Source of the DNA: a virus
DNA: 14,756 nucleotides
Reading direction: 5' to 3' (one strand)
Virus record (IMG/VR): IMGVR_UViG_3300021057_000107
Coordinates: 1 to 14,756 of that record
The notes under the pieces were generated by a model. It worked only from the letters and a program-made list of their open reading frames with translations. It had not been told where the DNA came from and did no database searches. Shown here piece after piece: positions 260 to 14,510 of this stretch. The number at the start of each line of letters is the position of its first letter. Positions within the stretch are counted from its first letter, which is position 1. A program made the translations under genes and the position numbers.

Positions 260-269
260 GCATAGCTCC

Positions 270-803
270 TTAAGTATCTAATAAATGACTAGTACTTAAA
301 CCTTCACTTTGACGGTAACTGTTACTTTTACTTGTATCCAAGGCATAGTCTATTGATAGGGTATCCATAGGCTCTCTATTGGTGTCTTTTAATGGCTTTT
401 GAATAAGCGCTCGTTGAAAAATATCCTTATCAACATTTAAATATCTTAAAATCTTATCAATATCGAAGTCCCTTGCTCTTTGCTGGATATTCCGGCAGAT
501 GGCTTTGTGAACGGTCTTTTTTAGGTTTATAGGAGCATTCCGTTGATCTTCTATGTGATCTTTAAGCCAAAGCCATTTATTTTCACGCCAGTAATACTTT
601 TGAATCTCTTGCATTAATGGCTCGATCTTTTCTTCAGGGATACGCGTAAAATAAGCAAAATGTTTTGGATTATACTGAATAAATCCGGCAGTGTCGCAAC
701 GGTCATTTAAGTAATAAAGCAAATACCCCGCCTCTGGACTTAAATTCTGATATTCTTCAAGCTCCCATTTAGTTTTGACGCTAAACTTGATATCACCGCT
801 CAA
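270..803 (-). CDS. Hypothetical protein, 177 aa, TTG start; possibly replication-associated by context
   Basis: The start is TTG at 803, with AGGAGG (815..810) 6 nt upstream. It overlaps the upstream TGA as TTGA (800..803). The first in-frame ATG is only at codon 64. I recognise no motif, and the functional guess rests only on coupling to the CHC2 zinc-finger gene. Confidence 0.7.
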   Translation of the reverse strand: MSGDIKFSVKTKWELEEYQNLSPEAGYLLYYLNDRCDTAGFIQYNPKHFAYFTRIPEEKIEPLMQEIQKYYWRENKWLWLKDHIEDQRNAPINLKKTVHKAICRNIQQRARDFDIDKILRYLNVDKDIFQRALIQKPLKDTNREPMDTLSIDYALDTSKSNSYRQSEGLSTSHLLDT

Positions 804-1273
804 ATAACACCTCCTACAAGAAAATTAACTGCCTGGTTAAAATTTAATCCTTTAATATTCATCACAAAATCGATGCTTGTGCCATCAGCCCCACAGCCAA
901 AACAGTGATAACGGTTTTTTTGGTCAATTATCATTGAAGCTTTATCCTCGCGATGAAACGGACAGCAAACCCAATTCTTCTGGCCTTTTTGTTTTATGCC
1001 TTCAAAGTCAAATAAATTCAGTATAGAAACCGCCTTAGCCCTAAGAATCTTCTGTCCAAAGTTCATTGTGTTGTCAGCATGGCCGTTATCTGCAACCAGG
1101 CTTTTAATGCGTTGTAGGTAGGTCGTCATTTCATTTGATTGTTCTTTTTCGGCAATAGTATCTTTCACCTCTGGAAAAATCTTAAGGAGATCAAGCGTGT
1201 CTGGGTATTCGTACTGGTATTCGTACCAATCGCCTTCGTTTACGTCATCCATGTATTTAATTGTTTGTCGCAT
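800..1273 (-). CDS. Stand-alone CHC2 (DnaG-type) zinc-finger protein, 157 aa, with no TOPRIM or primase catalytic domain
   Basis: The C-terminal segment WVCCPFHREDKASMIIDQKNRYHCFGCGADGTSIDFV carries the CPFH...YHCFGCGxxG signature of the primase zinc-binding domain (compare E. coli DnaG CPFHNEKTPSF...YHCFGCGAHG). The protein ends about 25 aa after the finger. There is no obvious SD before the ATG at 1273. Confidence 0.8.
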   Translation of the reverse strand: MRQTIKYMDDVNEGDWYEYQYEYPDTLDLLKIFPEVKDTIAEKEQSNEMTTYLQRIKSLVADNGHADNTMNFGQKILRAKAVSILNLFDFEGIKQKGQKNWVCCPFHREDKASMIIDQKNRYHCFGCGADGTSIDFVMNIKGLNFNQAVNFLVGGVI

Positions 1274-1358
1274 ATTTACTTAGGTGGGATTTTGCAACTA
1301 GGAGCATTACATCAATAAGTTTGGCTCTCTTTTGCAATGATTTACTCATACCCTTACC

Positions 1359-2825
1359 TTAAAAGTTATAGTCTATTTCAACATTTCCTTTAGGGAAAAC
1401 CCGAATAATCTTAATCAAAGCGTTTATCATATCTCGCTTTTCTTGTAGAGAAGCTTCTTCCCAATTTTGGTCAAACTCCCTATAAAATCTTTCTTTCTGC
1501 TTAAAATCCTCTTTTTTGGCCTTTTCTACCTCAAGTGAAGCCTTCAAAGAAGAGATATCCCCTTCAAGCTCCTTAATTTCCTTCCGGATTGCCTCGTATC
1601 TCTCCAAGAATTCATCTGGGGGGCTGTCTTGCTTCTCAAAAACCTGTAACCATTTCTTTTTAGCTAAATCTTTCGATTTTAGGGTTTTTTGTTTGTTTTC
1701 GATCTGTGCCTTAATATGGTCTATTTCCTGCTGTGAAGTTACATTTAAATGCCGCTGCATATATCTACTGTCATTTAAAAGCGCTCCAATATGCTCAAAG
1801 ATCATTTCCTTTACCGAACCTTCAAGCTTTTCTTTCTTATGAAATTTACGATGTTCACAGTCTCTTTTCTTGTTCCTTCGGTGGCAAGATGAACAGGCAT
1901 AATATCCTAAGCGACCTCTGTCCTTCTTTTGACTTGGAACCTCTCTTTTAACCATTTCACGCCCACAAAGACCACACTTAGCAACGTCTCTTAAAATAAA
2001 ATCCGGGGCCACACATGACCAACTCGCTTCGTAGCCTTTAAAGTTTGCGTCTCTAATTCTCTGAACTTCTTCAAACATAGGAATTTCGATAATGGGCGGG
2101 TGCTTTTGTTCATAGATAATTTCTTTAACTTTCATGCGTCCAGTATATTTAACATTCGTCAGTATTCGCATTATTTGCCTTCGATCAAGCTTAACCCTTG
2201 CGCTTATGCCTCGCCTTTCTAATTCAATTCGTACGCGGTTATCACTCTTATACTGCAAATACAATTTATAAATAAGCCTGACAATTTCTGCATCTTCCTC
2301 GACTATAACAAATCTTTTCTCAATGGTTTTATATCCAAAGGGCGGTTCTGATCCAAAATTTGTTCCATCACGCTGAACCTTCGTATATCTTCCAGTAATC
2401 ATACGCTCAGCGATATTGTCTCTTTCCATTTGAGCAAATACAGCAATTATGCCCATTATTGCCTCAGAAAACTTGGAGCTTGTATCAAAAGGCTCTGTAA
2501 CAGATTTATAGGTGACGCCGTAATTCTTAAACTCTTGCAGTAGTTCCAGAGTATCCCGTGCTGTTCTACTTAAACGATCTTGTTTCCACACAAATAAATG
2601 CTTAACTCTTCCGCGCCTTATATCTTGCCGCAGTCGTTCAAGTGAGGGTCTATCTACAAATGTAGCCCCACTGGAAGTATCAATATAGAAATCTTGTTCG
2701 GAAAGCTCTAAACCTTGTGACCTTGCAAAAGAAGAGATTCGATCTTTTTGTGTGTCTATTGAGGCGCGGTCTTCCCGAGCTTGTTCAAGAGTGCTGACTC
2801 GTATGTAAGCTTTGCTTGTTTTCAT
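1359..2825 (-). CDS. Large serine recombinase (phage-integrase type), 488 aa
   Basis: The N-terminal resolvase catalytic motif is KAYIRVSTLEQ (Ser11), with the LFVWKQDRLSR motif following. There is a central recombinase domain and a Cys-rich zinc ribbon, CGLCGREM...YYACSSCHRRNKKRDCEH. The long charged C-terminal coiled coil (about residues 360-470) is typical of large serine integrases. Confidence 0.95.
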   Translation of the reverse strand: MKTSKAYIRVSTLEQAREDRASIDTQKDRISSFARSQGLELSEQDFYIDTSSGATFVDRPSLERLRQDIRRGRVKHLFVWKQDRLSRTARDTLELLQEFKNYGVTYKSVTEPFDTSSKFSEAIMGIIAVFAQMERDNIAERMITGRYTKVQRDGTNFGSEPPFGYKTIEKRFVIVEEDAEIVRLIYKLYLQYKSDNRVRIELERRGISARVKLDRRQIMRILTNVKYTGRMKVKEIIYEQKHPPIIEIPMFEEVQRIRDANFKGYEASWSCVAPDFILRDVAKCGLCGREMVKREVPSQKKDRGRLGYYACSSCHRRNKKRDCEHRKFHKKEKLEGSVKEMIFEHIGALLNDSRYMQRHLNVTSQQEIDHIKAQIENKQKTLKSKDLAKKKWLQVFEKQDSPPDEFLERYEAIRKEIKELEGDISSLKASLEVEKAKKEDFKQKERFYREFDQNWEEASLQEKRDMINALIKIIRVFPKGNVEIDYNF

Positions 2826-2937
2826 TAACCTTGCTTGTTTTGTTTATTCTTCTTTCGACGGGTTTTTGATAAATCTTCCAGAAATCATTTTCTGCTGTTT
2901 CTTTAATATTCAAAAACTTAGCTCTTGCCTTAATCAT
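2785..2937 (-). CDS. Possible 50-aa basic micro-ORF coupled to the tyrosine recombinase stop (speculative; candidate accessory or directionality factor)
   Basis: It is absent from the track because it is under 60 aa. The ATG at 2937 overlaps the upstream TGA as ATGA (2934..2937), and GGAGGAG lies just upstream inside the end of the recombinase gene. My translation is MIKARAKFLNIKETAENDFWKIYQKPVERRINKTSKVNENKQSLHTSQHS. Its last 41 nt overlap the large serine recombinase start in another frame, which argues against it. Confidence 0.3.
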   Translation of the reverse strand: MIKARAKFLNIKETAENDFWKIYQKPVERRINKTSKVNENKQSLHTSQHS

Positions 2938-4571
2938 TTCTCCTCCTTTATTGGATTAAAGTATCTCCGGCTTTTTATTAACCATGCCGGAGGATTCTTA
3001 ATTATTTCTTGTACGTCAGACAGAATAACTTGATTCCTCGCCCGCGTTGAGTCACTTTTAATTAACCCTTGCTTTACATATTTATGGGCCGTTGTTAAAG
3101 AAATTCCCAATATCTTCCCCGCCTCTTCAACGGAAATATGATCCTTGCTTACATTCTGAGTTCTTTTCTGGTTAGCATAGAACTTTATTAACCATTCTGG
3201 CTTTGCCTGCAGGATGAGATCAATTTCGTTTTTGCTTAACTCCTTTGCTATGCCGTCATTTCTAACCTTGCTCAAATACCCCTTCTTAACCCAATCTTTT
3301 AACGTCATAACCGAAGTCTTGATATACTTAGCAGCTTCAGCGAACGTCAAGTAAGGATCTTTTGCTCTTTCTTCGGCTGCTTCGCGTAAAATATCCGCTG
3401 TAGTTTTCTTCTTGGCTTCATTAAGTCTCTGCTTTCTCCCTGCTACCTGTTCCTTTAGCCATGCCACACGACGCTCTAAAATGGCAACGTCCTTCTCTGT
3501 GACAAATTCGGAATCATCCTGGACGCCAAGACTTTTTCTTATTTTTTCGTAACCTTCGGTTATTTCATCCTCTTGTTTCTGACGTAGAACATCTTTTCCA
3601 CCAAAAAGCAAAGCATGATCTGCAAACATTTTTTGTGGACTAACATGTGTGTATACTTCGGTCGTTGAGATGCAGCTATGTCCTAATAATTCTTTAATCT
3701 CCAGGGTATTTGCTCCCCCCTCCAACAAATGCGTTGCAAAGGCGTGACGAAATAAATGAGGATGAACACGCTTATTCACTTTTTCCATTAAGGCATATTG
3801 CTTCATTTGTAAACCAACACGTGCTTTATGCAGTTTTTTGCCTTCGCCACTTCCTGCAACGGTAAGAAACACTTTACATTCGGGAAGTAAATCCTCTTTC
3901 TTCTTTGTTTTGTTGTAAGTAGAAATGGCTAGATTTGCCCGACGATTGATAAATACAATTCGTTGTTTAGAGCCTTTGCCAGTGACAACCGCTGATCCAT
4001 CCGATAAATTAAGGTCCTTATTTTCCATATTAAGCACCTCGCTTACTCGGCAACCAGTGCTGTAAAAAGTTTCTAGTAAAGCCCAGTCGCGCAATAACCG
4101 AATTAATGGAGCATTAATGATCTTACAAACTTCATTGACGCTTAGAACATTAGGAAGTGGCCTTTGCAGTTTGGGAAGATCCATTAATAGCCAGTTTGCA
4201 GTACTTGGGATAACTTCATTTCTGGCTAAGAAATTTCCGTAACCACGAAGAATAGTTATGATTCGATGTCTAAGATTTGGCGTAAGGTTGGAAATTTGAC
4301 CTAAAAACTCTCTGACGATTGACCTATCAATTTGATTAACGTTCTTTAAACCATTCTTATTGGTGAATTTTTGGAATCTTCCAAGATAACATTGGTAGGC
4401 TCTTATTGTACTATTTGATAAATTCTTGATCTCACAATCGGCAAGGTAACTCTTAATTGATTTATTTATTGAGTTACTGACAGGAAAAGGTAATTGTAAT
4501 GACCTTTTCTTATTTAGAAGACGAATAATCTCCTGGTGGGTTTCCCTTTTATAAGCAATATGATTAGCCAT
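2934..4571 (-). CDS. Tyrosine recombinase (XerC/XerD-integrase family core) with a roughly 225-aa C-terminal extension carrying two tandem excisionase/MerR-like HTH repeats
   Basis: An N-terminal SAM-like core-binding segment (YLADCEIKNLSNSTIRAYQCYLGRF) is present. A full catalytic set is readable: R174 (STGCRVSE), GKGSKQR, H272-x-x-R275 (HPHLFRHAFATHLL), H298 (LLGHS) and Y307 (TEVYTHV). Residues 321-545 add a coiled coil and two related roughly 57-aa modules, YLTFAEAAKYIKTSVMTLKDWVKKGYL...KPEWLIKF and HISVEEAGKILGISLTTAHKYVKQGLI...PPAWLIKS. Confidence 0.92.
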   Translation of the reverse strand: MANHIAYKRETHQEIIRLLNKKRSLQLPFPVSNSINKSIKSYLADCEIKNLSNSTIRAYQCYLGRFQKFTNKNGLKNVNQIDRSIVREFLGQISNLTPNLRHRIITILRGYGNFLARNEVIPSTANWLLMDLPKLQRPLPNVLSVNEVCKIINAPLIRLLRDWALLETFYSTGCRVSEVLNMENKDLNLSDGSAVVTGKGSKQRIVFINRRANLAISTYNKTKKKEDLLPECKVFLTVAGSGEGKKLHKARVGLQMKQYALMEKVNKRVHPHLFRHAFATHLLEGGANTLEIKELLGHSCISTTEVYTHVSPQKMFADHALLFGGKDVLRQKQEDEITEGYEKIRKSLGVQDDSEFVTEKDVAILERRVAWLKEQVAGRKQRLNEAKKKTTADILREAAEERAKDPYLTFAEAAKYIKTSVMTLKDWVKKGYLSKVRNDGIAKELSKNEIDLILQAKPEWLIKFYANQKRTQNVSKDHISVEEAGKILGISLTTAHKYVKQGLIKSDSTRARNQVILSDVQEIIKNPPAWLIKSRRYFNPIKEEK

Positions 4572-5112
4572 GATTTTTATTCTGGTATCTCAGTAAGTAA
4601 CCTGATTTTCTTCTTCGCCCTTTATCCTTGCTGCCCTGCGGCCTCCCTAAATCACGACCCTTCGCCTTCAATCTGGCTCTTGCACTAACAAGTCCAGCCC
4701 TTGTTCGCTCGCTGATTCTTTTTCGTTCCTGCTGGGCAACCCAACTAAATATTGCCAGCAAAAGCTGCCCTAATCCTTCGTCACGCGTGTCTAGCCAACT
4801 TTCCTGTAATGATTTAAGATCAACCCCATTGCGCTTTAACCGTTCAATGTAACCTAAGGTATTGCTAATTCCTTCACGAGAAAGGCGATCTAACGACCAC
4901 AAAAGAACTAAATCAAACTTCCTTTTGTCTGCATCTTCAAGCATACGTCTAAACTCCGCACGATCTCCATTACTACCGCTTGCCAAATCAACATATTCGT
5001 CAATAATCTCGCCGCCTAAGGCATCTGCATAATTCCTAAGAGGAATTAATTGATTCTGAGGGTCTTGACTTTCATCATTTTTTGAAACCCGGCAATAGAT
5101 AGCAATTTTCAT
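4564..5112 (-). CDS. Small serine recombinase (resolvase/invertase catalytic domain), 182 aa, lacking the usual C-terminal HTH
   Basis: The sequence shows MKIAIYCRVSKNDESQDPQNQ (Ser10), LLWSLDRLSR and the E-helix AQQERKRISERTRAGL. After GRP (residues 156-158) only a 24-aa basic tail remains (QGSKDKGRRRKSGYLLRYQNKNHG). The start overlaps the upstream stop as ATGA (5109..5112), with GGAG 7 nt upstream. The 3' end overlaps the tyrosine recombinase start by 8 nt. Confidence 0.9.
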   Translation of the reverse strand: MKIAIYCRVSKNDESQDPQNQLIPLRNYADALGGEIIDEYVDLASGSNGDRAEFRRMLEDADKRKFDLVLLWSLDRLSREGISNTLGYIERLKRNGVDLKSLQESWLDTRDEGLGQLLLAIFSWVAQQERKRISERTRAGLVSARARLKAKGRDLGRPQGSKDKGRRRKSGYLLRYQNKNHG

Positions 5113-5297
5113 ATGCAGTCTCCATTAAATTTCTTTTTATCAAAAACATTGTCTATGATTTTTTCCGCTTCATTTAATAATAAATATTCGCGACAGGCCT
5201 CCTCAATTAAGATCTGAGTTGCTTTGTCCAACATTGCAATTATCGGTGCGGGTTTCGATTCTGGCGGCTTTGCCTTTTTCCTGCTATTCTTTTTCAT
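5109..5297 (-). CDS. Hypothetical 62-aa protein with a lysine-rich N-terminus
   Basis: I prefer the ATG at 5297 (MKKNSRKKAKPP...) over the track's TTG at 5312, because it forms an ATGA overlap with the XRE gene stop (5294..5297). It is chained by another ATGA to the resolvase gene. I recognise no motif. Confidence 0.6.
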   Translation of the reverse strand: MKKNSRKKAKPPESKPAPIIAMLDKATQILIEEACREYLLLNEAEKIIDNVFDKKKFNGDCI

Positions 5298-5533
5298 CGT
5301 TGCTCCCGGCAAGTTGTAAGGCCTGATCCAAAAAGTGACGGATCAATTCGAGCTGGATCAACACCAAGAATTTTTGCAATAGTGATAACTTCACCCGTAC
5401 TGGGCGTACTCCTATTGGTTTCATACCGCGTTAAACGCGCCTCTTTTATTCCTGATTTCTCCGCAAGCTTGCGCTGGGTTAATTCGGCCTTTAACCGAAA
5501 CACTCGAATATTTTGACCTATACGATTTTCCAT
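5294..5533 (-). CDS. XRE / Cro-C1-type HTH regulator, 79 aa; first gene of the long leftward operon (Cro-like position)
   Basis: IRVFRLKAELTQRKLAEKSGIKEARLTRYETNRSTPSTGEVITIAKILGVDP is a classic HTH_3 pattern. AAGGAGG lies 4 nt upstream of the ATG at 5533. Confidence 0.88.
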   Translation of the reverse strand: MENRIGQNIRVFRLKAELTQRKLAEKSGIKEARLTRYETNRSTPSTGEVITIAKILGVDPARIDPSLFGSGLTTCREQR

Positions 5534-5573
5534 TTTTCCTCCTTGTTAAAACTTTCTTTATTAACCTTTAGAC

Positions 5574-5602
5574 AAAAAAAATCGACTCGATTTTCTAGTC
5601 GA
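5574..5602 (-). terminator. Intrinsic-terminator-like hairpin plus U8 tract in the leader of the leftward operon (alternatively an operator palindrome)
   Basis: The minus strand reads G-TCGACT-AGAAAATCG-AGTCGA-TTTTTTTT. That is a 6-bp perfect stem (5597..5602 with 5582..5587), a 9-nt loop, then eight U (plus-strand A run 5574..5581). The stem is short and only half GC, so it would be weak. Confidence 0.35.
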
Positions 5603-5673
5603 CAAACTTTCTATTAATGCTAAGATTATTAAATTGTTTTGGTTTTGCTTTCCGCATAATTATCTCTGGAATT

Positions 5674-5753
5674 TGGTAATATTTCATTACTATGGTAATA
5701 ATATATCACCCAACAAAACATTTGTCAATAATTGACTGGTAATTTTTTATCAC
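5674..5753. promoter_or_regulatory. Three 17-bp operator-like direct repeats in the divergent control region
   Basis: O1 is 5674..5690 TGGTAATATTTCATTAC. O2 is 5693..5709 TGGTAATAATATATCAC. O3 is 5737..5753 TGGTAATTTTTTATCAC. TGGTAAT is invariant, and the right end is TATCAC in O2 and O3. O2 covers the predicted leftward -10. O3 fills the rightward promoter spacer. Confidence 0.55.
5700..5728 (-). promoter_or_regulatory. Predicted leftward sigma70-type promoter
   Basis: On the minus strand, TTGACA (5728..5723) is followed by a 17-nt spacer and TATATT (5705..5700). This implies a leader of about 160 nt before the 79-aa XRE gene. Confidence 0.5.
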
Positions 5754-5759
5754 TATAAT
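5732..5759 (+). promoter_or_regulatory. Predicted rightward sigma70-type promoter driving a leaderless mRNA
   Basis: TTGACT (5732..5737) is followed by a 16-nt spacer and TATAAT (5754..5759). The A of the ATG at 5766 is the 7th nt after the -10, and no SD lies between them. This promoter sits back-to-back with the leftward -35, 3 bp apart. Confidence 0.65.
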
Positions 5760-5765
5760 CAGCTT

Positions 5766-6065
5766 ATGAACGTCACATGGAAGGAAGTTGCATCTGAAAT
5801 TCGAAAAAAGCGTAGGCTCTTAGATATAACTCAAGAAGAGTTCGCTAAAATGATTCATACTGGACAATCTTTTGTCGCGCAGATGGAGAAAGGCGAAAAA
5901 GTGCCCTCTATAGAGGTTGCTAAGAAGATTGCTAAGGAACTTGATATAGACTTTAACCGAATTAAGAATGCCATTATACTGAAAAAAGCAGAACCATTTT
6001 CCGCACCCGCAGGATCAACGATCCAGATAAAAACTCATACACGTATAATCATTCCAAAGAAGTAA
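5766..6065 (+). CDS. XRE-type HTH regulator, 99 aa; the only plus-strand gene (CI-like position), with no peptidase domain
   Basis: IRKKRRLLDITQEEFAKMIHTGQSFVAQMEKGEKVPSIEVAKKIAKELDID is an HTH_3 pattern. The gene is transcribed divergently from the 79-aa XRE gene. Confidence 0.88.
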   Translation: MNVTWKEVASEIRKKRRLLDITQEEFAKMIHTGQSFVAQMEKGEKVPSIEVAKKIAKELDIDFNRIKNAIILKKAEPFSAPAGSTIQIKTHTRIIIPKK

Positions 6066-6109
6066 AATAGGTTTGGTTTGCATTCTTCTCACTTCGCAAA
6101 TGAACGTAA

Positions 6110-6514
6110 TTATCCATGATTATATAGAGTAAAATTCTTATCTATCCATAATATGTGAAAAATTCTTCCCAATTTAAAGCCAACCATTGGAGCCTGACCT
6201 ATACAACGAAAAGCAATCATATCAACATCCTCTGTTACCTTAGCAGGAATCGACACTTTTAAAGCATTGCGAGCTATTTTTTCGTAACCAAGGCCGTCCC
6301 GCGGAGCTAATCTTAATTCCTTCCATGTCAATTTGCTTCTCTTATAGAGAGCCATTGCAAAATGAGCCTTTTGGTCTTTTTGACATGAATGGACACAATA
6401 TCCGTCAACCATAAATTCTAAAGAAAATATTGGAGTTTGATCGTCAGATTTGTCGGAGGGAACGTAATGCGGTTGGATTCTTCCAGTGTTTAGTTTAGGC
6501 TCGCGAAATGTCAC
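6110..6514 (-). CDS. Unrecognised 134-aa protein immediately downstream of a Panacea-domain antitoxin; candidate toxin
   Basis: A GTG start at 6514 lies 3 nt after the upstream TAA (6518..6520) with no separate SD, which suggests coupling. The C-terminus FRCIGQAPMVGFKLGRIFHILWIDKNFTLYNHG loosely recalls the terminal beta strands of RelE/ParE-like folds. That is weak and by eye only. Confidence 0.6.
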   Translation of the reverse strand: MTFREPKLNTGRIQPHYVPSDKSDDQTPIFSLEFMVDGYCVHSCQKDQKAHFAMALYKRSKLTWKELRLAPRDGLGYEKIARNALKVSIPAKVTEDVDMIAFRCIGQAPMVGFKLGRIFHILWIDKNFTLYNHG

Positions 6515-6517
6515 GAA

Positions 6518-6976
6518 TTATTCAACAACAAGGGTCTTAAAATATTCTTTCATTGAAGCGTGAGTGATAACCTCAACGCCAGCACCCTTTTCAAATGCTT
6601 CTTTCCAAGGAGCCTCTTCGTGAGTTAAATTTCTTAATTTCCAGGCGGAGAATTGACCAAAAACTCTATATACTTCATCCAAAAGGTCTTGAACTTTTTT
6701 ATCATAAATTGATAAGTCTAATTTATCGGGAGCAGGAATACTATCCGCACCATAATCTCTATATTTTCGATACAAGGACGGTATCACAGGACCATGTTGC
6801 CATGCCTCAATCTCCTCAGTAAACAAAGGCTCATTAAACATAGCCAAATGAAATCCTTGAGCATAATAACAAAGTTTCTGTAATTTAAGATTTGAGATCA
6901 TATCCCCTGCTTCAGGATCATTTTTGGCAAGAAAATAATTAGCAATATCTTCGACTGATAATTGGCGGGTAGGCAT
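6518..6976 (-). CDS. Panacea / DUF4065 (SocA, GepA-like) antitoxin-domain protein, 152 aa
   Basis: NLKLQKLCYYAQGFHLAMFNEPLFTEEIEAWQHGPVIPSLYRKY matches the family hallmark (LQKLLYYAQG...IEAW.HGPV...Y). AGGAG (6989..6985) lies upstream of the ATG at 6976. Confidence 0.85.
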   Translation of the reverse strand: MPTRQLSVEDIANYFLAKNDPEAGDMISNLKLQKLCYYAQGFHLAMFNEPLFTEEIEAWQHGPVIPSLYRKYRDYGADSIPAPDKLDLSIYDKKVQDLLDEVYRVFGQFSAWKLRNLTHEEAPWKEAFEKGAGVEVITHASMKEYFKTLVVE

Positions 6977-7002
6977 AAATATTTCTCCTATAAAGAGTGT
7001 AC

Positions 7003-7031
7003 AATATAGCGTAAAATTGTCAACTAGTCAA
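7003..7031 (-). promoter_or_regulatory. Predicted promoter of the antitoxin-toxin pair
   Basis: On the minus strand, TTGACT (7031..7026) is followed by a 17-nt spacer and TATATT (7008..7003). The leader to the SD is about 20 nt. A GTCAAC direct repeat (7019..7024 and 7027..7032) overlaps the -35 region. Confidence 0.55.
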
Positions 7032-7078
7032 CAGGTAAGAGTCTTGGGGTCATTTATTATAATTTAACTCTTTACTGT
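7031..7078. repeat. Imperfect 12-bp inverted repeat with a 24-bp spacer (48 bp overall) between terL and the TA module
   Basis: ACAGGTAAGAGT (7031..7042) pairs with ACTCTTTACTGT (7067..7078). The reverse complement of the right arm is ACAGTAAAGAGT, which matches 10 of 12 positions. Confidence 0.5.
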
Positions 7079-7141
7079 TAAAGAACAAGCAAAAACAGAT
7101 AAATTTAAACTTTTAACCAAAAAGAAGCGTCCTTTTCCCTT

Positions 7142-8533
7142 TTATCTTAATCCTAATTCCTTAAATGGATTCCAATTATCGTTTGATGAATATTGAGGTT
7201 GTCTAAAATGTGTATATTGCCTGTCTTGATCGTCCTTTACAGAATCAATAAGACTGGCCGCCATACAAAGCGAATCGAATAAATTTGGTGATTTAATTTT
7301 ATATTTATTACGCATCTCCTCCTTGCTGATTAATATCTTTCTGCCGTCATTGGCATATTTAAAACGGACGGTCATCATTTCCTGCACAATTTCCTCCGTT
7401 AGCCCACCTATCCAACCACGTGAAATATACTCCTTGAGTTTGTAAGCGGCTGCGGTGCGAGGATTCACATAATCGGGGTTCTTGTCCTTATCTAAAACAG
7501 GATTTCGGAAAGGCTCATAATTATTTAACCTATGCCCGCAAGTAATTGAATCAAAAGGCCCGCTTCCAAGGCCGTCAACGTCAATGATAGATCTTTCTGC
7601 ATTATGCTGCTTTGAAAGATTAATGATCCGACCAGTTGTATAATCAAGGTCTTTGTGTTCCCAAGTTTCTGAATGGACTACCATCCAATGCAAACGATTT
7701 ACTTGCTGTAGAACAACGCACGCGCTTTTGTCGGCTCCATATCGGGCCACATCAAATCCGGCAATTCGTAAACCATAGCCCGGACTAGGCGAGATTTCCT
7801 TCTTTGCCTCCATTAACTCTGAAAATCTATAAACAAGATCGTCACTTTCTGTTTCTTCAAAGCTGTTTAAAACATACCTACGATAGTGCGCCGGAGCGTC
7901 AATCTCCTTTCTTCTTAAATCCTGCACAAAGTCTTCACGGAGGTTCTTCTCATTCGCAAAACTGTTTGCCGTCAAACAATGGTAAACATCATTAATATAC
8001 TCAAATTCGCCCGTTGCTGAATTAATCGTATTTACCGTTTTTGCGCCATTAATCCATAACCTCCAAACCCAATTATGCCCATTAGCGTTTGCAATAACAC
8101 AAATAGGGCATACATTTGCTCCGTTATTCTGACGCATACGATCACGAAGAAACTGAAACGGCGTATCATCGTCAAATTCTTCCGCCTGTTCAATGCCGCA
8201 AATACCAAGGTTAAGATTTTTAAGGACCCTTAATTCATCGGCATGACGGAACATAATTAGTGATCCATTGTCCAAACGATAATTTTTGTCGACCGGAATT
8301 TTTTCTTCATAGTATTTCTCGAAGTCAACCATTGTTGAATCCCGCAAGTCGGTAAATTCTTTACGAACAATTAATCCCGTTGTTCTCTTGTATTTTGCAC
8401 AATAGTTAACGATCTTGTTTATCAATAACATCGTTTTTCCAGTTCCAACGGCTGAAATTAAGCAAGGGAATTTTGCCTCGCTATAAAGAAACCTATATTG
8501 ATAATTCCCCTTATCAACATTAAATGTTTGCAT
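7142..8533 (-). CDS. terL: Terminase large subunit, 463 aa
   Basis: The ATPase half shows Walker A SAVGTGKT, then GLIVRKEFTDLRDS, a Walker B-like LGICGIEQAEE and a coupling-like ANANG. The RNaseH-like nuclease acidic motifs are AGFDVARYGADKSA, IIDVDGLGSGPFD and SPNLFDSLCMA. Order and spacing are typical of tailed-phage TerL. Confidence 0.93.
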   Translation of the reverse strand: MQTFNVDKGNYQYRFLYSEAKFPCLISAVGTGKTMLLINKIVNYCAKYKRTTGLIVRKEFTDLRDSTMVDFEKYYEEKIPVDKNYRLDNGSLIMFRHADELRVLKNLNLGICGIEQAEEFDDDTPFQFLRDRMRQNNGANVCPICVIANANGHNWVWRLWINGAKTVNTINSATGEFEYINDVYHCLTANSFANEKNLREDFVQDLRRKEIDAPAHYRRYVLNSFEETESDDLVYRFSELMEAKKEISPSPGYGLRIAGFDVARYGADKSACVVLQQVNRLHWMVVHSETWEHKDLDYTTGRIINLSKQHNAERSIIDVDGLGSGPFDSITCGHRLNNYEPFRNPVLDKDKNPDYVNPRTAAAYKLKEYISRGWIGGLTEEIVQEMMTVRFKYANDGRKILISKEEMRNKYKIKSPNLFDSLCMAASLIDSVKDDQDRQYTHFRQPQYSSNDNWNPFKELGLR

Positions 8534-11500
8534 TTACCTGATCCTTTTATAAAGTTCTAAGACTTCAAGATTTAAAAGACCTGACTTCTTTGCTTCGGAT
8601 AATTTGTTAAGCAACTCTTCACCTTCAAGGCCTTCGGTTATTTCAAGAACCATACCGACACGGGCGGATACTTTTGCTTTATCTAGAATCTTATCTATAT
8701 TTTTTGCCTTTAACTCATCGTCGGTGTCTTCGTAAGAGTCCATTTGCATATAAGAAGAAATCTTATCAAAGGCTATTGCTCCGGCGTTTTGCCAAAGTTC
8801 CGTGTTCTGTTCTGGCGTTAATATGTCATAGCCTTCACGGCCTCCCAACAAAGTAGTCGATATTTCAAAACCCAGATCTGTTAGCCTCCGTAACTCCTGA
8901 ACAATGGGGTCTTTTATTTCCGTCATCGGTCTTGTAGGATCAGCCATGATTTCAAAGAAGTTTTCTGGAATGATCCGTTCTCTTCCTAGGACATCAATCT
9001 GTGGCTCTAGGCTGCTTCTAAGAAACGGAATCCTTGAAGCAATTGCATTTGATATGTTTTCAACCCGACGTTCTGTTTTGTCTGTTGCCTTTGCAATATC
9101 CGCTATTATCGTTGGCACAAATGAAGAGATGAGCCCAGAGGTGAAATACTCTGCAGATCGTTCTGGGTCGGTTAATGCGTCGATAGCCGAAGACATCCCC
9201 TTAAGAAACGTTTGCTCTGAGAAAGACTTTGCGCTTCCAAAGATCGTCTTTGATATTGCTTCTGTTGGGCTTCCTGATTCTTGAAGTCTTTTCGCAAACT
9301 GCCCGCCGATTAAGATAAGGTTTCCTGCAGGGCCTAAGACCTGAATTGATCGCCATGTATCACCGATTTTGATTGAATTAGCTTTTCGATTTTCAAGCTT
9401 TGCTAATTCCTTAAGTCTTTCGGAAATCGGTCTATCAAGGGTCAAGTCGCCCCTGTTGTAAAGATCATAACCAAACCACAAAAGCGGAACGCCTAATAAA
9501 GCACGGCCCATTCCTTTTGAAAAGTCGCGTTGATCCCATTTTCCTTTTCCGATATTTTCAAGAGCCGTCTTTATAACTCCGGCAGGGCTGTAGTTGATAA
9601 TCTGCATTGCAACGGCTGAAGGCGTCTTACTGAATGGTAGGACAAATTCACCTCCTGGGATATTCTGAATCGCTCGACCAGCTTTTGATAAGAAAGTTTC
9701 GTTCTGGAAAGTTGCTGCTTCAGCATCGGAAACTGCTAAAACCAGAGTATCATCAGTTGGATTTTCGATAAGATTGTTAATATAAGTTTCGGCTTCCTTG
9801 CCTTTTAAACCTTTATTCTTTGCGGCGACAATGGCTTGCTCTGCGATAGAACGAGCTTTTGCACCGTAATAAAATATCTGATCTTCTGCGCCTAGAATCT
9901 TAAAGACTCCTTCTTCATAAGCCTGTAGACCTTTGGCAATTTTTCCTTTACCAAATGATACGCGACGGTAATCAAACTTACCTAAAACGTTTCGCTCATC
10001 GTAACCAGTTTTTAAGAATCGCCAGCCCTTTTCGAAACCTTCTTTGATACCACTAGAAAGCCCTCTGGTTGTAAAGGCAACGGCTCGCTTCCCAGTGAAT
10101 AACGAAACAACACTATCAACAGCAACGGCTGGAATATCTTTTAAAACTTCCGTACCGAAGGCATGAGAAGCGTTGCTGAATATATTCAAGCCTGAAGTTT
10201 TAATGCCTGTGAGTAATCCGGCTTTCCAAACAGTCGTGATTTTCTTGAGCAATGGCGTAGGCACAAGATCATTTAGATAGTCTTGCATCTCTTTCCATGC
10301 GACGGCCTTGGCTTCTCCGTCGGGAAGTTGTGATATTGCGGTGACTCTATCACGAATAAACCTTGCTTGTTCGCCAGTAAGTTCCGGGATTTTCTTTCGT
10401 AGACCAAACATACCAGCGTCTTTCTCGACTTCAGCGTTGTATCGTTTAATGGTTTGAGCTGCGAATTTGATCTGTCCTTCAGGCGTTTGACGTGAAAGAA
10501 TAGAAGCTGCCTGCACAGAACGGCCTAACTCGGTTAATCGAACAGCCATATCATTTCCTAACTCAGCCGCCCTCTCATAGAGAGCGTCAGCTACAGCAGG
10601 CTCCGTGGCTTTCTCAGCTAATTCGGTATAATGTTTTAACAACTCTGCCCCTGTAGCAATTGAAGCATCATCAGTCCCGGTTCTTGCCATTGTCTCAGCA
10701 AGAGCTAAGTCCTCTTGAATTAACGTTCTTGCCTTTTGTGCTAACTCATCAGTACTTCTGGGTACATATTGCCCTGAGACTTTTAATATCGGCAGTTCTT
10801 CTTTGATCGAAGTAATAAATTTCCTTTCTTTGTATCCTGGTTTTATCGTTTCGCCTGCGGCAGCTTTAGCAACGGTCACGGGGTCTGTTGCTGCCTTACC
10901 TGCAGTTTCTCCGACAGCCTTAATTGCGGCCTTTGGGTCATTCGGTGCAGGAACGCCAGTATATAACTTAGGACTCTTAAGATATTTATCAGCCCTTTGG
11001 AAAAAATAAGCCTGAACCTCTGGACGTTGCATATAGGCCCAGGCTTCTTCAGCGTTCATGTTCATTTTTTCCATCACAGTGGAATGAATTTTAGCGGTCG
11101 AGTTCCTAAGAAGATTTCTAGCAGCGTTGATTTGATAGTTTTCTATCATGACTGGAATACTTTGAAGACCGCCATAAATAAACAAATCTTCAATCGCTCC
11201 GGCAACTGCCCGAGGAATTAAAGCGGCGATGCCTCCTTCACGCTCTTTTTGCGTAAATGGTATTCGATCATGTGCGGTGATCTTTACCACCGAAGAAGGC
11301 ATAACAACCGCTTTGATAACATCAGCACCTAACTCGTCAGTCTGACCTGTCACAACGTCGCCAACAAAAGCCCGAACTGGTTCATAAATCCTACCTACCA
11401 GAGTTTCAAAAGCAGCATCAGCAAGCTTTAGACCTGGGTCTACTACGGCACGATTTGCTTTGAGCCTGGCTTCAGTGTCAATCTTTCCCGTCATTAAAAA

Positions 11501-11797
11501 TGAACCTGCATCTTTAACATCTTGGGCCATTGATTGACCTACACCTTTGACAAACTCCGGCACGGCCTTAATGGTTTCCTTTGCCTTTTTCTCCATTGCA
11601 AACCAATTTTCGTCCGAAATAATCGGCTCAGCTTGAGCTAATATCTGCATAATCGACTGACGCGGAGACTTTCCATACTCATTTATATTAATGTGATGCT
11701 GCACATCAATGTCGTGCATATCGCCGGGATAAGACAAAGACTTATTTTTATCTTCAAGATAAATTTCTTTATTAGGTAAAACGGTAATAGGTAGCAT
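8534..11797 (-). CDS. Giant 1087-aa protein of unknown function; possibly virion-associated or packaged, by position only
   Basis: The frame is uninterrupted over 3264 nt. Its ATG overlaps the upstream stop as TAATG (11795..11799), and its TAA directly abuts the terL ATG (TAAATG, 8531..8536). It is mostly helical and Ala/Lys-rich, with a low-complexity linker (APNDPKAAIKAVGETAGKAATDPVTVAKAAAGE) and hydrophobic patches near the C-terminal third. I found no catalytic motif. Confidence 0.85.
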   Translation of the reverse strand: MLPITVLPNKEIYLEDKNKSLSYPGDMHDIDVQHHININEYGKSPRQSIMQILAQAEPIISDENWFAMEKKAKETIKAVPEFVKGVGQSMAQDVKDAGSFLMTGKIDTEARLKANRAVVDPGLKLADAAFETLVGRIYEPVRAFVGDVVTGQTDELGADVIKAVVMPSSVVKITAHDRIPFTQKEREGGIAALIPRAVAGAIEDLFIYGGLQSIPVMIENYQINAARNLLRNSTAKIHSTVMEKMNMNAEEAWAYMQRPEVQAYFFQRADKYLKSPKLYTGVPAPNDPKAAIKAVGETAGKAATDPVTVAKAAAGETIKPGYKERKFITSIKEELPILKVSGQYVPRSTDELAQKARTLIQEDLALAETMARTGTDDASIATGAELLKHYTELAEKATEPAVADALYERAAELGNDMAVRLTELGRSVQAASILSRQTPEGQIKFAAQTIKRYNAEVEKDAGMFGLRKKIPELTGEQARFIRDRVTAISQLPDGEAKAVAWKEMQDYLNDLVPTPLLKKITTVWKAGLLTGIKTSGLNIFSNASHAFGTEVLKDIPAVAVDSVVSLFTGKRAVAFTTRGLSSGIKEGFEKGWRFLKTGYDERNVLGKFDYRRVSFGKGKIAKGLQAYEEGVFKILGAEDQIFYYGAKARSIAEQAIVAAKNKGLKGKEAETYINNLIENPTDDTLVLAVSDAEAATFQNETFLSKAGRAIQNIPGGEFVLPFSKTPSAVAMQIINYSPAGVIKTALENIGKGKWDQRDFSKGMGRALLGVPLLWFGYDLYNRGDLTLDRPISERLKELAKLENRKANSIKIGDTWRSIQVLGPAGNLILIGGQFAKRLQESGSPTEAISKTIFGSAKSFSEQTFLKGMSSAIDALTDPERSAEYFTSGLISSFVPTIIADIAKATDKTERRVENISNAIASRIPFLRSSLEPQIDVLGRERIIPENFFEIMADPTRPMTEIKDPIVQELRRLTDLGFEISTTLLGGREGYDILTPEQNTELWQNAGAIAFDKISSYMQMDSYEDTDDELKAKNIDKILDKAKVSARVGMVLEITEGLEGEELLNKLSEAKKSGLLNLEVLELYKRIR

Positions 11798-13212
11798 TAA
11801 AGATCCTCAAAGTTGATTTGTAGGTTATTAAAAGCTGTACTCACCGGCTTTTGATTTACCTTCTTGCCCTTAGCCTTACTTTCTTTCTTGTACGCTCCGA
11901 TGATTCTATTTCGATTTCCGACAAGGTTAGGAACATCGGGAAGCTGTGTCGTTGAAGGAAAATTTTTGCGAATGTAGTCTTTTTGAACAGTCTGCATGAC
12001 AACATCGGGGTCGGCATTTGGTTGCTTATCTAGACGTTGAAAGAAATTAAATACAATCTCATCTTCGTCTTCCGGAAAAGACTTGGAAGCCCAATCGCCC
12101 AAAGCTTGTGCAGAAGCTCTTATTGTGATTGTTCGGGAGTCAAGTGGATCGTAAGCACTCTTAACTAAATACTCTCTATCCTGCGGCGTTAAACTGCTAA
12201 TGCTTTCGATAATCTTTTGATTAACTTCTTTCCGCTTCTTGCCTTCAAGCTGAAGAGCTTTAATCTGGTTGTAAGATTGAAAGTCCGTTCTCTCTGCCGG
12301 AGCATCATAAATTGAAGCGATATATTTCTCGCCAAAATCTTTTCGAATACCCGTTGAAATAAGCAGATCTTTGACTTTTGTTTGCGTTACCGTACCGAAA
12401 TTTAAAAGTAAATCAGTTTCGTTCTGATCCTGATTAAGATTGACAGTATGGTCATTCAAAATTCTATTACGCCGAATGTGTAATTTTGTTTTCTCCAAAC
12501 GCTCTGCTCTCTCAGCATCGGTAAGATGAGCGTATTCACCATCCTTGCCAGCTTGTAACTGACTATAAACCCAGGAATTTTCTTGTTCCAAAGCTTGATC
12601 TTGCATAATATCTAAATCAACAGAGCCAAGACGATAATCGTCCAAAAGCTTTCTTCCTCCGGCCTCAGTAATCACACCACTGACCACGTTAGCCTCAATC
12701 AATTGCCCCATCTTTTTATCAATGTCTTGCCTTACGGATATCTTCGGTGCATTAGACTTTTCAAGAGACATATTACGCACGGTTTCTTCAAGATTTTGGT
12801 AAGCCTTGAAATGCTGCTTTTGTTTGAATATTCCTTCAATTTCAATTTTGGCAATAGCCAGGTCCTTCTTAAAATGCAAAGCAACATTCTCCCGAACCTG
12901 GGCGTTTTTTATCTGAGTTGGCGAAAGTTTTTCGGCTTTATTAAGTTCTTTTAAATATTTTTCAACGTTGTCGGGGTTTTGGTCTTCAAGAGCTTGCTGC
13001 TTAACTCTAGCGATATGCGTTGAAACCTCTGCACTTGTCTTATTGACTTGCATAACATCATTCGCATTAGACCAATCCTGAGCAATCTGATTGACAGTGT
13101 TAAGAAGGTTTTGATTTGCTTGTGCTGCTTGATCGACTTCATTACGAATTGGAGCTTGTAATTTACTTTCAATATTACGTTTTGATGTATATGTTGGTAA
13201 TGATGGTGACAT
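11797..13212 (-). CDS. 471-aa charged, coiled-coil-rich protein of unknown function (scaffold-like or internal-protein-like is only a guess)
   Basis: I prefer the ATG at 13212 (MSPSLPTYTSKRN...), which has GAAAGGAA upstream, over the track's TTG at 13272. The extra 20 codons are a translation of a GC-rich hairpin. The composition is Gln/Lys/Glu-rich and helical. Confidence 0.8.
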   Translation of the reverse strand: MSPSLPTYTSKRNIESKLQAPIRNEVDQAAQANQNLLNTVNQIAQDWSNANDVMQVNKTSAEVSTHIARVKQQALEDQNPDNVEKYLKELNKAEKLSPTQIKNAQVRENVALHFKKDLAIAKIEIEGIFKQKQHFKAYQNLEETVRNMSLEKSNAPKISVRQDIDKKMGQLIEANVVSGVITEAGGRKLLDDYRLGSVDLDIMQDQALEQENSWVYSQLQAGKDGEYAHLTDAERAERLEKTKLHIRRNRILNDHTVNLNQDQNETDLLLNFGTVTQTKVKDLLISTGIRKDFGEKYIASIYDAPAERTDFQSYNQIKALQLEGKKRKEVNQKIIESISSLTPQDREYLVKSAYDPLDSRTITIRASAQALGDWASKSFPEDEDEIVFNFFQRLDKQPNADPDVVMQTVQKDYIRKNFPSTTQLPDVPNLVGNRNRIIGAYKKESKAKGKKVNQKPVSTAFNNLQINFEDL

Positions 13213-13232
13213 GAATTCCTTTCTTGCCGTAA

Positions 13233-13256
13233 CCCCCGGCCTTTTCAAACCAGGGG
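13233..13256 (-). other. GC-rich hairpin in the short gap before the 471-aa gene
   Basis: Minus-strand RNA forms CCCCUGG (13256..13250) paired with CCGGGGG (13239..13233). That is a 7-bp stem including one G-U wobble, with a 10-nt loop. On the plus strand the same position would be a C-A mismatch. No U tract follows. Confidence 0.45.
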
Positions 13257-13276
13257 CTAGGCAGACACACAAATTG

Positions 13277-13384
13277 TTAAGATAAGCGGTCGTCGTTTCT
13301 AGCGTCGTTCAATGCGCTATTACGTCCGCTGTTTGAATAAGTACATAAACTAACGTCTTTGTTAAAAGTAATCACTGTATCCAT
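13277..13384 (-). CDS. 35-aa micro-ORF with a strong ribosome-binding site
   Basis: It is absent from the track because it is under 60 aa. AAAGGAGG lies 6 nt upstream of the ATG at 13384, immediately after the upstream gene's stop. My translation is MDTVITFNKDVSLCTYSNSGRNSALNDARNDDRLS, with TAA at 13277..13279. It fills an otherwise empty 125-nt gap in a tightly packed operon. Confidence 0.5.
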   Translation of the reverse strand: MDTVITFNKDVSLCTYSNSGRNSALNDARNDDRLS

Positions 13385-13398
13385 AGTTGCCTCCTTTC

Positions 13399-13929
13399 TT
13401 AACCAAGCTTGGGTGTGTACTTGTCGGAAGTTGGTATTGGTTTGTTTTGACTTAGAGAATCAGAAAAGCCGCTGCCTTGCTCTCCTCCTCCGTCCTCAAT
13501 GCGATAACCAGAGCCGGATTTAACTTCTTTATATCCGTAACCGATGCCAGTGTTATGATTGTCAACGTCCTCACTTACTCCCCTTGATCGGTTTCCCTCC
13601 ACAAGGTTTGATGATTTTCTTGCATCAGGCCCTTTGCCATACTCTGCATCTCCAGTTTGCTCTTTTATGATCTGAACCTTTTCAGCTTCATAAGTTGTAA
13701 TCCAGCCTTTTAAATTGCAGCCCTTACCACTGGCAAACCCTGCCTCCATCATGTTGACAAATCTTACGGCTCGATCTGATTCTTCAAGCATTGGAATATT
13801 CTCTTCATCAAACTGACCGCCCCAGTAAGCGTGTTTCTTGTTGGATCGAATCTTTTGAGCCCATGCTTTACATTCTTCTGGTGAAACATAAAGCTCTTCG
13901 TCATCTCCTGGTATTTCGTTGTAGTTCAT
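13399..13929 (-). CDS. Hypothetical 176-aa protein with a Gly/Ser-rich C-terminal tail
   Basis: I prefer the ATG at 13929 (MNYNEIPGDDEE...), with AGGAGA (13942..13937) 7 nt upstream. The track start at 13965 lacks an SD and overlaps the previous gene by 20 nt. I recognise no motif. Confidence 0.75.
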   Translation of the reverse strand: MNYNEIPGDDEELYVSPEECKAWAQKIRSNKKHAYWGGQFDEENIPMLEESDRAVRFVNMMEAGFASGKGCNLKGWITTYEAEKVQIIKEQTGDAEYGKGPDARKSSNLVEGNRSRGVSEDVDNHNTGIGYGYKEVKSGSGYRIEDGGGEQGSGFSDSLSQNKPIPTSDKYTPKLG

Positions 13930-13945
13930 TGCGTTGTCTCCTTTT

Positions 13946-14197
13946 TCATTGTTCTCCATGCTCATGTTTTATTTGTCTAACCTTATTGGCCAGTTCTATG
14001 GTGTCATTCCAATCATGATAATAGACGTCACTACCTTTACTTTTTACTTCCATCATTTTTATAAACTTTCCGACTTCATTGTTTTCACGTATTTGGTGAT
14101 ACTGATGGCACTTTCTAAGAAGTACGAACATTATTTCTAAATCACTTTTTGATGATAAATAATCCCTCGCCTCCTGTAATGCTTCATAGTTTTTCAT
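13946..14197 (-). CDS. Hypothetical 83-aa protein
   Basis: The ATG at 14197 has AAGGA 7 nt upstream. The gene sits in the same-strand operon. I recognise no motif. Confidence 0.7.
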   Translation of the reverse strand: MKNYEALQEARDYLSSKSDLEIMFVLLRKCHQYHQIRENNEVGKFIKMMEVKSKGSDVYYHDWNDTIELANKVRQIKHEHGEQ

Positions 14198-14242
14198 TTT
14201 CTTTTCCTTTCTTAACTGTTTTTACAATGCCTCTCCATTGCG

Positions 14243-14422: not shown

Positions 14423-14510
14423 GTCTCTCCTTATCTCTTATTCAAATAATCGTTCGTTTATTTGTTTGTGTTTTTTATTCTTTGTAAACCCTAAAAAATC
14501 AGGGGGAGTA

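Follow-up and report, generated by a model that had tools for sequence, protein, structure and literature searches.

A 1087-residue protein encoded beside TerL on a 14.6-kb circle is probably a podophage internal virion protein of the gp16 slot

Introduction

What is a protein of 1087 residues, encoded immediately next to a large terminase gene, doing on a viral circle of only 14.6 kb? The question is raised by IMG/VR virus record IMGVR_UViG_3300021057_000107, whose positions 1 to 14,756 were analysed as a whole (hereafter, the window). The window consists of a 14,629-bp unit followed by an exact 127-nt terminal direct repeat (positions 1-127 and 14630-14756) and therefore represents a circular assembly. 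A preliminary description, made from the letters alone, singled out an uninterrupted 3264-nt frame, took the circle for a genome, and likened the frame's product to packaged or ejected polyvalent proteins, tape-measure-like proteins or oversized portals, without settling on any of them. We report here that the protein belongs to a very large family whose members occupy the T7 gp16 position of podophage structural operons. We estimate a probability of about 0.65 that it is a packaged and ejected internal virion protein of this slot (abbreviated IVP-D, for internal virion protein D), carried by a satellite-like element devoid of capsid genes.

Results

The 1087-residue protein and its family

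The frame was recomputed as 3264 of 14,629 nt (22.3%), in agreement with the earlier value of about 22%. Its translational chaining on both sides was also read directly: the 5' junction (...TTTAATGCTA...) shows the start overlapped by the upstream stop (TAATG), and at the 3' junction (...GGTAAATGCAA...) the stop abuts the TerL start (TAAATG). The protein has been recorded on four contigs of 10-20 kb. A contig from a Logan assembly of SRR7004167 (L003) is an identical 14,629-bp circle with 0 mismatches, another breakpoint and a 30-nt overlap; the circle was thus recovered identically by the k=127 and k=31 assemblies.

The gene and the parts of its product are as follows.

8534..11797, minus strand: 1087-aa protein of the internal-virion-protein-D class (gp16 slot), with an ATG start, assigned from PHROG 6651, the slot of its homologues and core profile matches
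8537..10837, minus strand: conserved core at the C-terminal end (residues 321-1087), all-alpha apart from a few short strands (173-member comparison; AlphaFold)
10823..10951, minus strand: Ala/Lys/Pro-rich disordered linker, residues ~283-325 (pLDDT below 50 at 272-289 and 302-328)
10943..11797, minus strand: lineage-specific N-terminal region, residues 1-285, helical, with no recognisable domain (local comparison; AlphaFold)

Scanning the protein against Pfam and NCBIfam gave no match even at E ≤ 1, and no enzymatic domain, including SLT and lysozyme domains, was recognisable there, in line with the lack of an enzymatic motif already remarked on in the preliminary description. The protein is nevertheless not an orphan. 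A word-indexed search returned 110 matches, most of them limited to the C-terminal ~70% of the query and 45-70% identical to it, and a profile search of 1.84 billion cluster representatives (50%-identity clusters) returned 22,285 matches at E ≤ 1e-3 and 11,551 at E ≤ 1e-30; the profile used includes ~330 N-terminal positions, and the weakest of the 22,285 may not be core matches. The family is very large and unnamed, with no Pfam or NCBIfam model and no solved structure.

Across 173 members, a core of ~760-767 residues always lies at the C-terminal end, with a median extension of 4 aa beyond it, and is preceded by an N-terminal extension of ~0 to 1104 aa (median 365 aa; 320 aa in the window). 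AlphaFold models of the full-length protein and of the core were assigned almost entirely to helix by DSSP, as expected from the helix-rich composition first reported. The core-only model, built from 106 sequences, reached a pLDDT of 88.9 and a pTM of 0.83, and the N-terminal region was modelled as low-confidence long helices except at residues 10-50. The Ala/Lys/Pro linker, originally placed at about residues 285-320, proved to be a real, disordered segment, slightly longer at both ends, and forms the exact border between the variable N-terminus and the conserved core.

Among the 164 positions conserved in at least 90% of the family, 158 (96%) are retained in the window copy, which is therefore not decaying. 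The C-terminus is precisely conserved and basic (...KRIR). The most invariant motif of the family, WKAGLLTGxKTSGLN (residues 524-538, nt ~10184-10228), is glycine-rich and does not form a canonical Walker A. A set of invariant polar residues in the core (D639, Q640, D691, Q698, N699, Q732 and N735) suggests a putative binding or catalytic surface.

Homology to annotated internal virion proteins

Several comparisons connected the core with proteins annotated as internal virion proteins. PHROG 6651, “internal virion protein”, matched residues 764-1007 at 1.3e-10, and tblastn matched genes annotated as IVP-D in the Desulfovibrio phage ProddE, the roseophages CRP-403 and CRP-804, and the pelagiphage HTVC025P. 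A hidden Markov model (HMM) of the core built from 176 sequences matched the ProddE IVP-D at 6.5e-50 (hhalign probability 99.8%) and the gp16-slot protein of the Autographiviridae cyanophage Syn5, gp45, at 1.7e-17 (hhalign probability 97.3%). Syn5 gp45 is reportedly a virion protein. Foldseek comparison with BFVD, a set of predicted viral structures, yielded 45 matches at E ≤ 1e-3, among them internal virion proteins of pelagiphage EXVC018P and cyanophages S-RIP1, S-CBP2, S-CBP3 and NATL2A-133, as well as large proteins named for PolyVal-ART, LPD (LPD3) and MuF-C domains. The domain, structure and Foldseek checks that had been proposed for this protein gave no Pfam or NCBIfam match, no PDB fold and a group of internal virion proteins in BFVD.

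The family occupies the gp16 slot

A single-protein query of IMG/VR retrieved no related loci, and an alignment query was needed to find them. Homologues were located on 80 IMG/VR loci and on 12 contigs of metagenome-assembled genomes (MAGs), mostly on contigs of 25-48 kb. Clustering of open reading frames (ORFs) on the IMG/VR loci revealed a recurrent order upstream of the homologue: genes of ~200 aa, 500-1350 aa, ~150 aa, ~175 aa and ~350-550 aa.

Two contigs give this order its names. On contig L004, tail tubular A (phrog_394/9239) is followed by a tail protein (phrog_376, 5e-172), a 191-aa gene, a phrog_418 internal virion protein gene, a homologue of the 491-aa gene that lies upstream in the window, and the homologue of the 1087-aa protein. 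Contig L101, which encodes a 69%-identical relative, has a head module (from precomputed Pfam matches) with, in order, a PF12236 T7-type portal, Bbp19, the epsilon15 GP7 capsid protein and Bbp16, after which come genes of 201 aa and 993 aa, a weak Phage_T7_Gp13 match, a 71-aa gene, PF24072 T7_gp14, a 527-aa gene and the homologue. This is the T7 order gp11-gp12-gp13-gp14-gp15-gp16 set within an epsilon15/BPP-1-like head module, which places the family in the gp16 slot and the 491-aa gene in the gp15 slot. The same position is found in ProddE, a member of Autographiviridae whose portal, capsid, tail tube and TerL match T7 by BLASTP: its IVP-D gene follows those of IVP-B and IVP-C.

In the window itself, of the T7-type slot genes only the gp15-slot partner accompanies the 1087-aa gene, and no tail-tube or gp14-like gene was detected. 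The gene adjoins TerL there; the copies in relatives lie within structural operons, a portal-terminase phage context that implies packaging.

The 12 MAG contigs (L085-L096) are binned with Nealsonbacteria, Kaiserbacteria, Saccharibacteria (three contigs), Micrarchaeota, Dehalococcoidia, Phycisphaerae, Poribacteria and others, and may be podophages infecting the candidate phyla radiation (CPR) or binning artefacts. On phage contigs carrying homologues of the IVP-D or TerL genes, clusters of glycosyltransferase, radical-SAM and sugar epimerase/aminotransferase genes adjoin the structural module (L001/L002, 14155-17356; L113, 1-7909).

N-terminal regions and their cargo domains

Local comparison showed that the N-terminal ~285-320 residues of the window protein are shared over their full length with only about a dozen relatives (P0002-P0010, P0012 and P0022). 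Residues ~10-55 are more widely kept, being found also in P0011, P0013-P0017, P0019, P0021, P0023, P0024 and P0026-P0029.

Other relatives carry recognisable domains at this end. In P0003, an ART-PolyVal domain (405-577) sits between the N-terminal region and the core, exactly at the position of the linker in the window protein. Located N-terminal to the core are also DnaJ and Zeta toxin domains (P0034), RelA/SpoT (P0077), DnaJ (P0046), LPD3 (P0109) and a sub-threshold ParB_N match (P0103); in P0086 alone, where the alignment to the core is split, it is ambiguous on which side of the core the Zeta toxin domain lies. In the distant member P0107, the N-terminus holds an SLT domain with 37% identity to its counterpart in T7 gp16 (E 3e-8); the family shows no other similarity to T7 gp16.

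The polyvalent option of the preliminary description therefore holds at the family level, given the gp16 slot, the homology to the ProddE and Syn5 proteins and the N-terminal cargo domains; strictly for the window copy, which has no recognisable enzymatic domain, it does not. This variety of N-terminal domains matches the account of IVP-D homologues by Hardies et al. (2016), in which members of an “extended IVP-D family” host lysozyme and cytoplasm-destined domains and homologues of IVP-C and IVP-D are extensively helical and notoriously hard to detect (PMC4819975).

The partner gene and TerL

The genes that flank the 1087-aa gene, and the remainder of the element, are as follows.

11797..13272, minus strand: partner gene of the gp15 slot (IVP-C), listed as 491 aa with a TTG start but probably 471 aa long, starting from the ATG at 13212
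7142..8533, minus strand: large terminase subunit (TerL), phrog_2 at 4.7e-23, its start abutting the 1087-aa stop
13399..13965, minus strand: 188-aa gene located upstream of the pair; within the element backbone it may hold the position of a small terminase gene
270..6976, mixed strands: element backbone, from Pfam and PHROG matches

For the partner gene, alignment of homologues favours the ATG at codon 21 (MSPSLPTY...), which supports the 471-aa product of the preliminary description against the mechanical 491-aa call from TTG. Partner homologues lie directly upstream of the core gene on L001/L002, L004, L025, L042/L046, L101, L102, L110, L111 and L112, and on L101 the homologue sits between the PF24072 T7_gp14 gene and the core gene. 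Among other gp15-slot families, hhalign matched the partner to a single cluster, colinearly but weakly (P 9e-4, probability 23%). The protein in this slot on L112 has a weak PHROG 1044 match (6.8e-5), which is not relied on.

TerL has 832 homologues at E ≤ 1e-20, most with PF04466. In relatives at 50-64% identity, TerS usually precedes TerL, and two or three small genes separate TerL from the PF12236 portal, which is followed by Bbp19; this arrangement points to the same phage lineage as that of L101. Of such a structural operon, the element thus has the opening gene (TerL) and the two closing ones (the pair), with the pair placed before TerL. The junction with terL that had drawn attention to the locus is true of the window and is not conserved: TerL was found within the flanks of up to 10 kb on either side of the homologue at 0 of 80 IMG/VR loci.

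The gene pair, TerL and the recombinase genes have a uniform G+C content at third codon positions (0.34-0.37); the pair did not, then, arrive recently from a foreign source. Given this uniformity, the higher G+C of the 1087-aa gene, which stems from amino-acid composition, was not accepted as evidence of recent acquisition.

A capsid-less element and its relatives

The backbone comprises a 177-aa ORF, a CHC2 zinc-finger protein, three recombinases, a divergent XRE switch, and SocA/Panacea with a phrog_8366 gene; besides these, the pair and TerL, the window holds the 188-aa gene and several unknown ORFs of smaller size. Searches of the window with Pfam, NCBIfam and PHROG detected no gene for a capsid, portal, scaffold, tail-tube or gp14-like protein, the absence of a capsid being a matter of detection among the small unknown ORFs. 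Calling the 14.6-kb circle a genome, as the preliminary description did, is accordingly doubtful, since no capsid, portal or tail genes were detected. The 188-aa gene is 27% identical over 86 aa (E 3e-4) to a 127-aa gene just upstream of TerL on contig L107. It was also considered as an IVP-B (gp14) gene and rejected, showing no phrog_418, T7_gp14 or other family signal and no hydrophobic N-terminus.

Two relatives of the element were recovered. On L107, a 12.7-kb insert (element 6204-18986) lies in the 3' end of a tRNA-Ser(tga) gene, with repeats at 6266-6294 and 18958-18986. Identity to the window is 62% for TerL, 54% for the resolvase and 60% for the homologue of ORF o74. The insert further encodes a zinc-finger primase, AAA_25, a weak relative of the 188-aa gene (o188) upstream of TerL, a methylase, MazG, XRE/HTH proteins and an integrase; no capsid or portal was found on L107. 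L107 and L108 lie within bacterial contigs of 65 and 334 kb, and one recorded contig with the L107 TerL measures 834 kb. Where L107 has its o188-like gene just ahead of TerL, the window carries the pair between the two. The second relative, L112, a contig of 12.5 kb (1-12496), has as its only structural genes a 564-aa gene in the gp15 slot and a 1107-aa homologue (51% identity, full length); it also encodes RepO, AlpA, a tyrosine integrase and a resolvase 71% identical to that of the window. The window, L107 and L112 have backbone genes in common, and the element is about one-third of the size of the 35-48-kb contigs that carry homologues. This gene content, the ~1/3 size and the tRNA integration of a relative fit a phage satellite. 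Two TerL-bearing contigs of 14-15 kb, P0198 and P0199, were considered as sister satellites and rejected as fragments of ordinary phages.

The backbone shows several further features. Genes for a resolvase (182 aa), a tyrosine recombinase (545 aa) and a large serine recombinase (488 aa) stand in a row at 1359-5112 (minus strand), an unusual load for 14.6 kb, and the tyrosine recombinase has a C-terminal extension with two HTH_17/MerR-like motifs. Just after TerL, at 6110-6976 (minus strand), the SocA/Panacea antitoxin gene (PF13274, 6.8e-22) and its downstream 134-aa phrog_8366 partner probably form a toxin-antitoxin pair, with promoter-like sites at 6996-7031. Divergent XRE-family genes of 79 aa (minus) and 99 aa (plus) at 5294-6065 look like a lysogeny-type switch and have back-to-back 11/12 matches to the sigma-70 consensus (5700-5728 and 5732-5759). 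The 157-aa protein at 800-1273 (minus strand) comprises little beyond a DnaG-type CHC2 zinc finger and has no TOPRIM or helicase domain; on L107/L108, the zinc-finger gene is followed by an AAA_25 gene. L112 also encodes an NYN-like protein, so named from a reading of its sequence and not from a family match.

Evidence against an ejection protein on a satellite

The following results weigh against the assignment to the gp16 slot or against the satellite step. T7 gp16 is among the PDB sequences, and neither phmmer nor two profile searches of them, one using a profile of the members from T7-like phages, returned any match; a core hmmsearch against T7 gp16 was blank, with an hhalign probability of 1.2%. 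Links to epsilon15 gp15/16/17 and RIO-1 gp36/gp37 by hmmsearch, hhalign and blastp were at noise level, and the partner gene had no detectable similarity to gp15 of T7 or ProddE. Foldseek against the PDB gave a best E of 0.29 for the full-length model and 0.32 for the core (TM ~0.1) with no phage protein, the top rows for the core being unrelated helical membrane transporters; Foldseek can overlook remote all-alpha similarity, and gp16 refolds between states (solved gp16, e.g., 7EYB). The core model thus appears to represent a helical fold with no solved relative. Since T7 gp16 was not matched, the term “gp16-like” rests on slot, architecture and homology to proteins annotated in that slot.

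Hydrophobicity points the same way. The late hydrophobic segments noticed at the outset do exist (residues 767, 821 and 889), but they are not clear transmembrane helices: in Kyte-Doolittle windows of 19 residues the maximum is 1.46 and the 1.6 threshold is never reached, and a transmembrane reading of the three segments was rejected for this reason. By analogy with T7 we infer virion location, ejection and a channel role for the protein. The absence of a gp14-like (IVP-B) gene means that the element cannot build a full ejectosome alone. Scans of the window for tRNA genes, Rfam families and an att motif were empty, and we infer the satellite step and helper dependence only indirectly.

Alternative explanations

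The alternative that survives best, although unlikely as a replacement, is that the protein is primarily an effector carrier, in which the core would serve only for encapsidation and ejection, like the C-terminal region of N4 gp50 or MuF, and the N-terminal 320 residues would act in anti-defence or host takeover. The ART-PolyVal, Zeta-toxin, RelA/SpoT, DnaJ and ParB domains N-terminal to the core in relatives, together with the PolyVal-ART, LPD3 and MuF-C proteins among the BFVD matches, are what such a carrier would be expected to show, and polyvalent proteins have been proposed to be co-injected with DNA (PMC5512222). The N-terminal region of the window protein, however, has no domain match and is modelled as low-confidence long helices, and members with an N-terminal extension of ~0 aa imply that the core must have a function of its own. 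This alternative overlaps with an ejected gp16-slot protein and does not exclude it.

Quite improbable is the view that the circle represents part of a prophage in decay or after rearrangement, or else an artefact of assembly, with the gene as a functionless passenger. It would explain why structural genes were not detected and why, among the loci examined, IVP-D adjoins TerL only in the window element. It sits poorly with an intact 3.3-kb frame that keeps 96% of the conserved positions, with two tightly coupled junctions and uniform third-position G+C, with the identical circle from two assemblies, and with the existence of related capsid-less elements with clean att repeats.

Still harder to uphold, and very unlikely in our estimate, is a role in remodelling or interference instead of ejection, whereby the element's own IVP-C/IVP-D pair would replace the helper's core proteins, either so that a smaller capsid could hold the 14.6 kb or to sabotage helper virions. 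The window and L112, both small integrative elements, do carry the pair with no other structural genes, the element is about one-third of the size of helper-size contigs, and its N-terminal extension of 320 aa falls below the family median of 365 aa. Close relatives borne by phages (L001/L002 and L102; 1088-1109 aa) are nevertheless equally long, and we know of no capsid-size factor that acts in this way.

An oversized portal or a tape-measure protein has a negligible probability: size, helical content and TerL adjacency are all that speak for either, the relatives encode a separate PF12236 portal, their other structural genes are podophage-type (tail tubular A/B, T7 gp13/gp14-like), Pfam, PHROGs and PDB gave no portal or tape-measure match, the sole BFVD “tape measure” entry ranks 50th at E 0.016, and no full-length match to a standard family of either kind was found.

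Discussion

The explanation that we prefer is an ejected internal virion protein of the gp16 slot on a satellite-like element. By analogy with T7, ~4 or more copies would be packed inside the capsid atop the portal together with the 471/491-aa partner, and the pair would be expelled through the tail ahead of the DNA, refolding so that the DNA conduit is lengthened through the cell envelope. Head incorporation and construction of the conduit would depend on the conserved ~767-aa core, and the N-terminal region (residues 1-320) would probably be delivered to the periplasm or cytoplasm, because relatives carry muralytic or host-directed effector domains at that position. The element would be a satellite using the virions of a ~40-kb epsilon15/BPP-1-like podophage, directing its own packaging through TerL and equipping the particles with its own ejection proteins.

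As with T7 gp16, the gene in relatives follows tail tubular A/B and the genes of the gp13, gp14 and gp15 slots; the length of 1087 aa lies within the large IVP-D range (about 600-1340 aa), and the protein is almost all-helical; the N-terminal module is variable, with an SLT domain in P0107; and the conserved helices are moderately hydrophobic and not classical transmembrane segments. Swanson et al. described a gp14-gp15-gp16 operon with gp15 of 431-982 aa and gp16 of 609-1337 aa, a swapped hydrolase domain, and membrane-inserting regions of gp16 that are globularly folded helices before ejection (PMC8954989). The differences are the lack of detectable sequence or fold similarity and of a muralytic domain in the window copy; moreover, T7-type IVP-D diverges fast, whereas the core of this family is far more conserved (45-70% identity for most listed homologues). 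Syn5 gp45 and the proteins of ProddE, HTVC025P and CRP-403 share homologous C-terminal ~450-550 residues and the same slot, but at ~23-27% identity, with unrelated N-terminal stretches of 600-800 residues, and they belong to complete lytic phages.

Iyer, Burroughs, Anand, de Souza and Aravind (2017) described injected polyvalent proteins with the same accessory domains (PMC5512222). The likeness lies in family members that join ART-PolyVal, Zeta-toxin, RelA/SpoT, DnaJ, ParB or LPD3 domains in one large protein of the head/packaging region. The window protein differs in having no recognisable enzymatic domain, unlike P0003, P0034, P0077 and P0103, and the 767-aa core does not correspond to a Pfam LPD model.

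Like P4, PICI/SaPI, cf-PICI and PLE satellites, the element is small (~1/3 of the putative helper) and encodes integrases, a repressor switch, a zinc finger of the primase type and a packaging protein; no capsid or tail gene was detected in it, and one of its relatives has integrated at a tRNA gene. Satellites usually redirect packaging by a small terminase and not by TerL alone, and we know of no described satellite that carries ejection proteins; a literature search yielded no paper combining “phage satellite” with internal virion or ejection proteins. We tentatively suggest, at odds somewhat below even, a new type of satellite that would steal the capsid, portal and tail of its helper and bring its own TerL and two large ejection proteins, so that the parasite would determine the delivery machinery and any N-terminal effector; related members with other subsets of these modules would include L107 and L112. 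Possible reasons for carrying ejection proteins include fit to a smaller head, delivery of its own and interference with the helper.

The protein is probably a further podophage gp16-slot ejection protein, in a very large subfamily that is unmodelled in curated libraries. A family of more than 11,000 clusters, in the gp16 slot of many uncultured podophages and lacking a model in both Pfam and NCBIfam, plainly calls for annotation, and its confidently modelled core with no solved relative is a target for structural work on ejectosomes beyond T7 and P22. The family can be viewed as a constant ejection scaffold that delivers interchangeable effectors (ART, Zeta toxin, RelA/SpoT, DnaJ, ParB and SLT). 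The carrier, a capsid-less satellite-like element with TerL and an ejection pair of its own, is the more interesting and less certain point. If the satellite reading is true, it would extend the known gene repertoire of satellites to the ejection apparatus and would bear on host range, on interference with helpers, and on the practice of calling terminase-bearing virome contigs “complete small phage genomes”.

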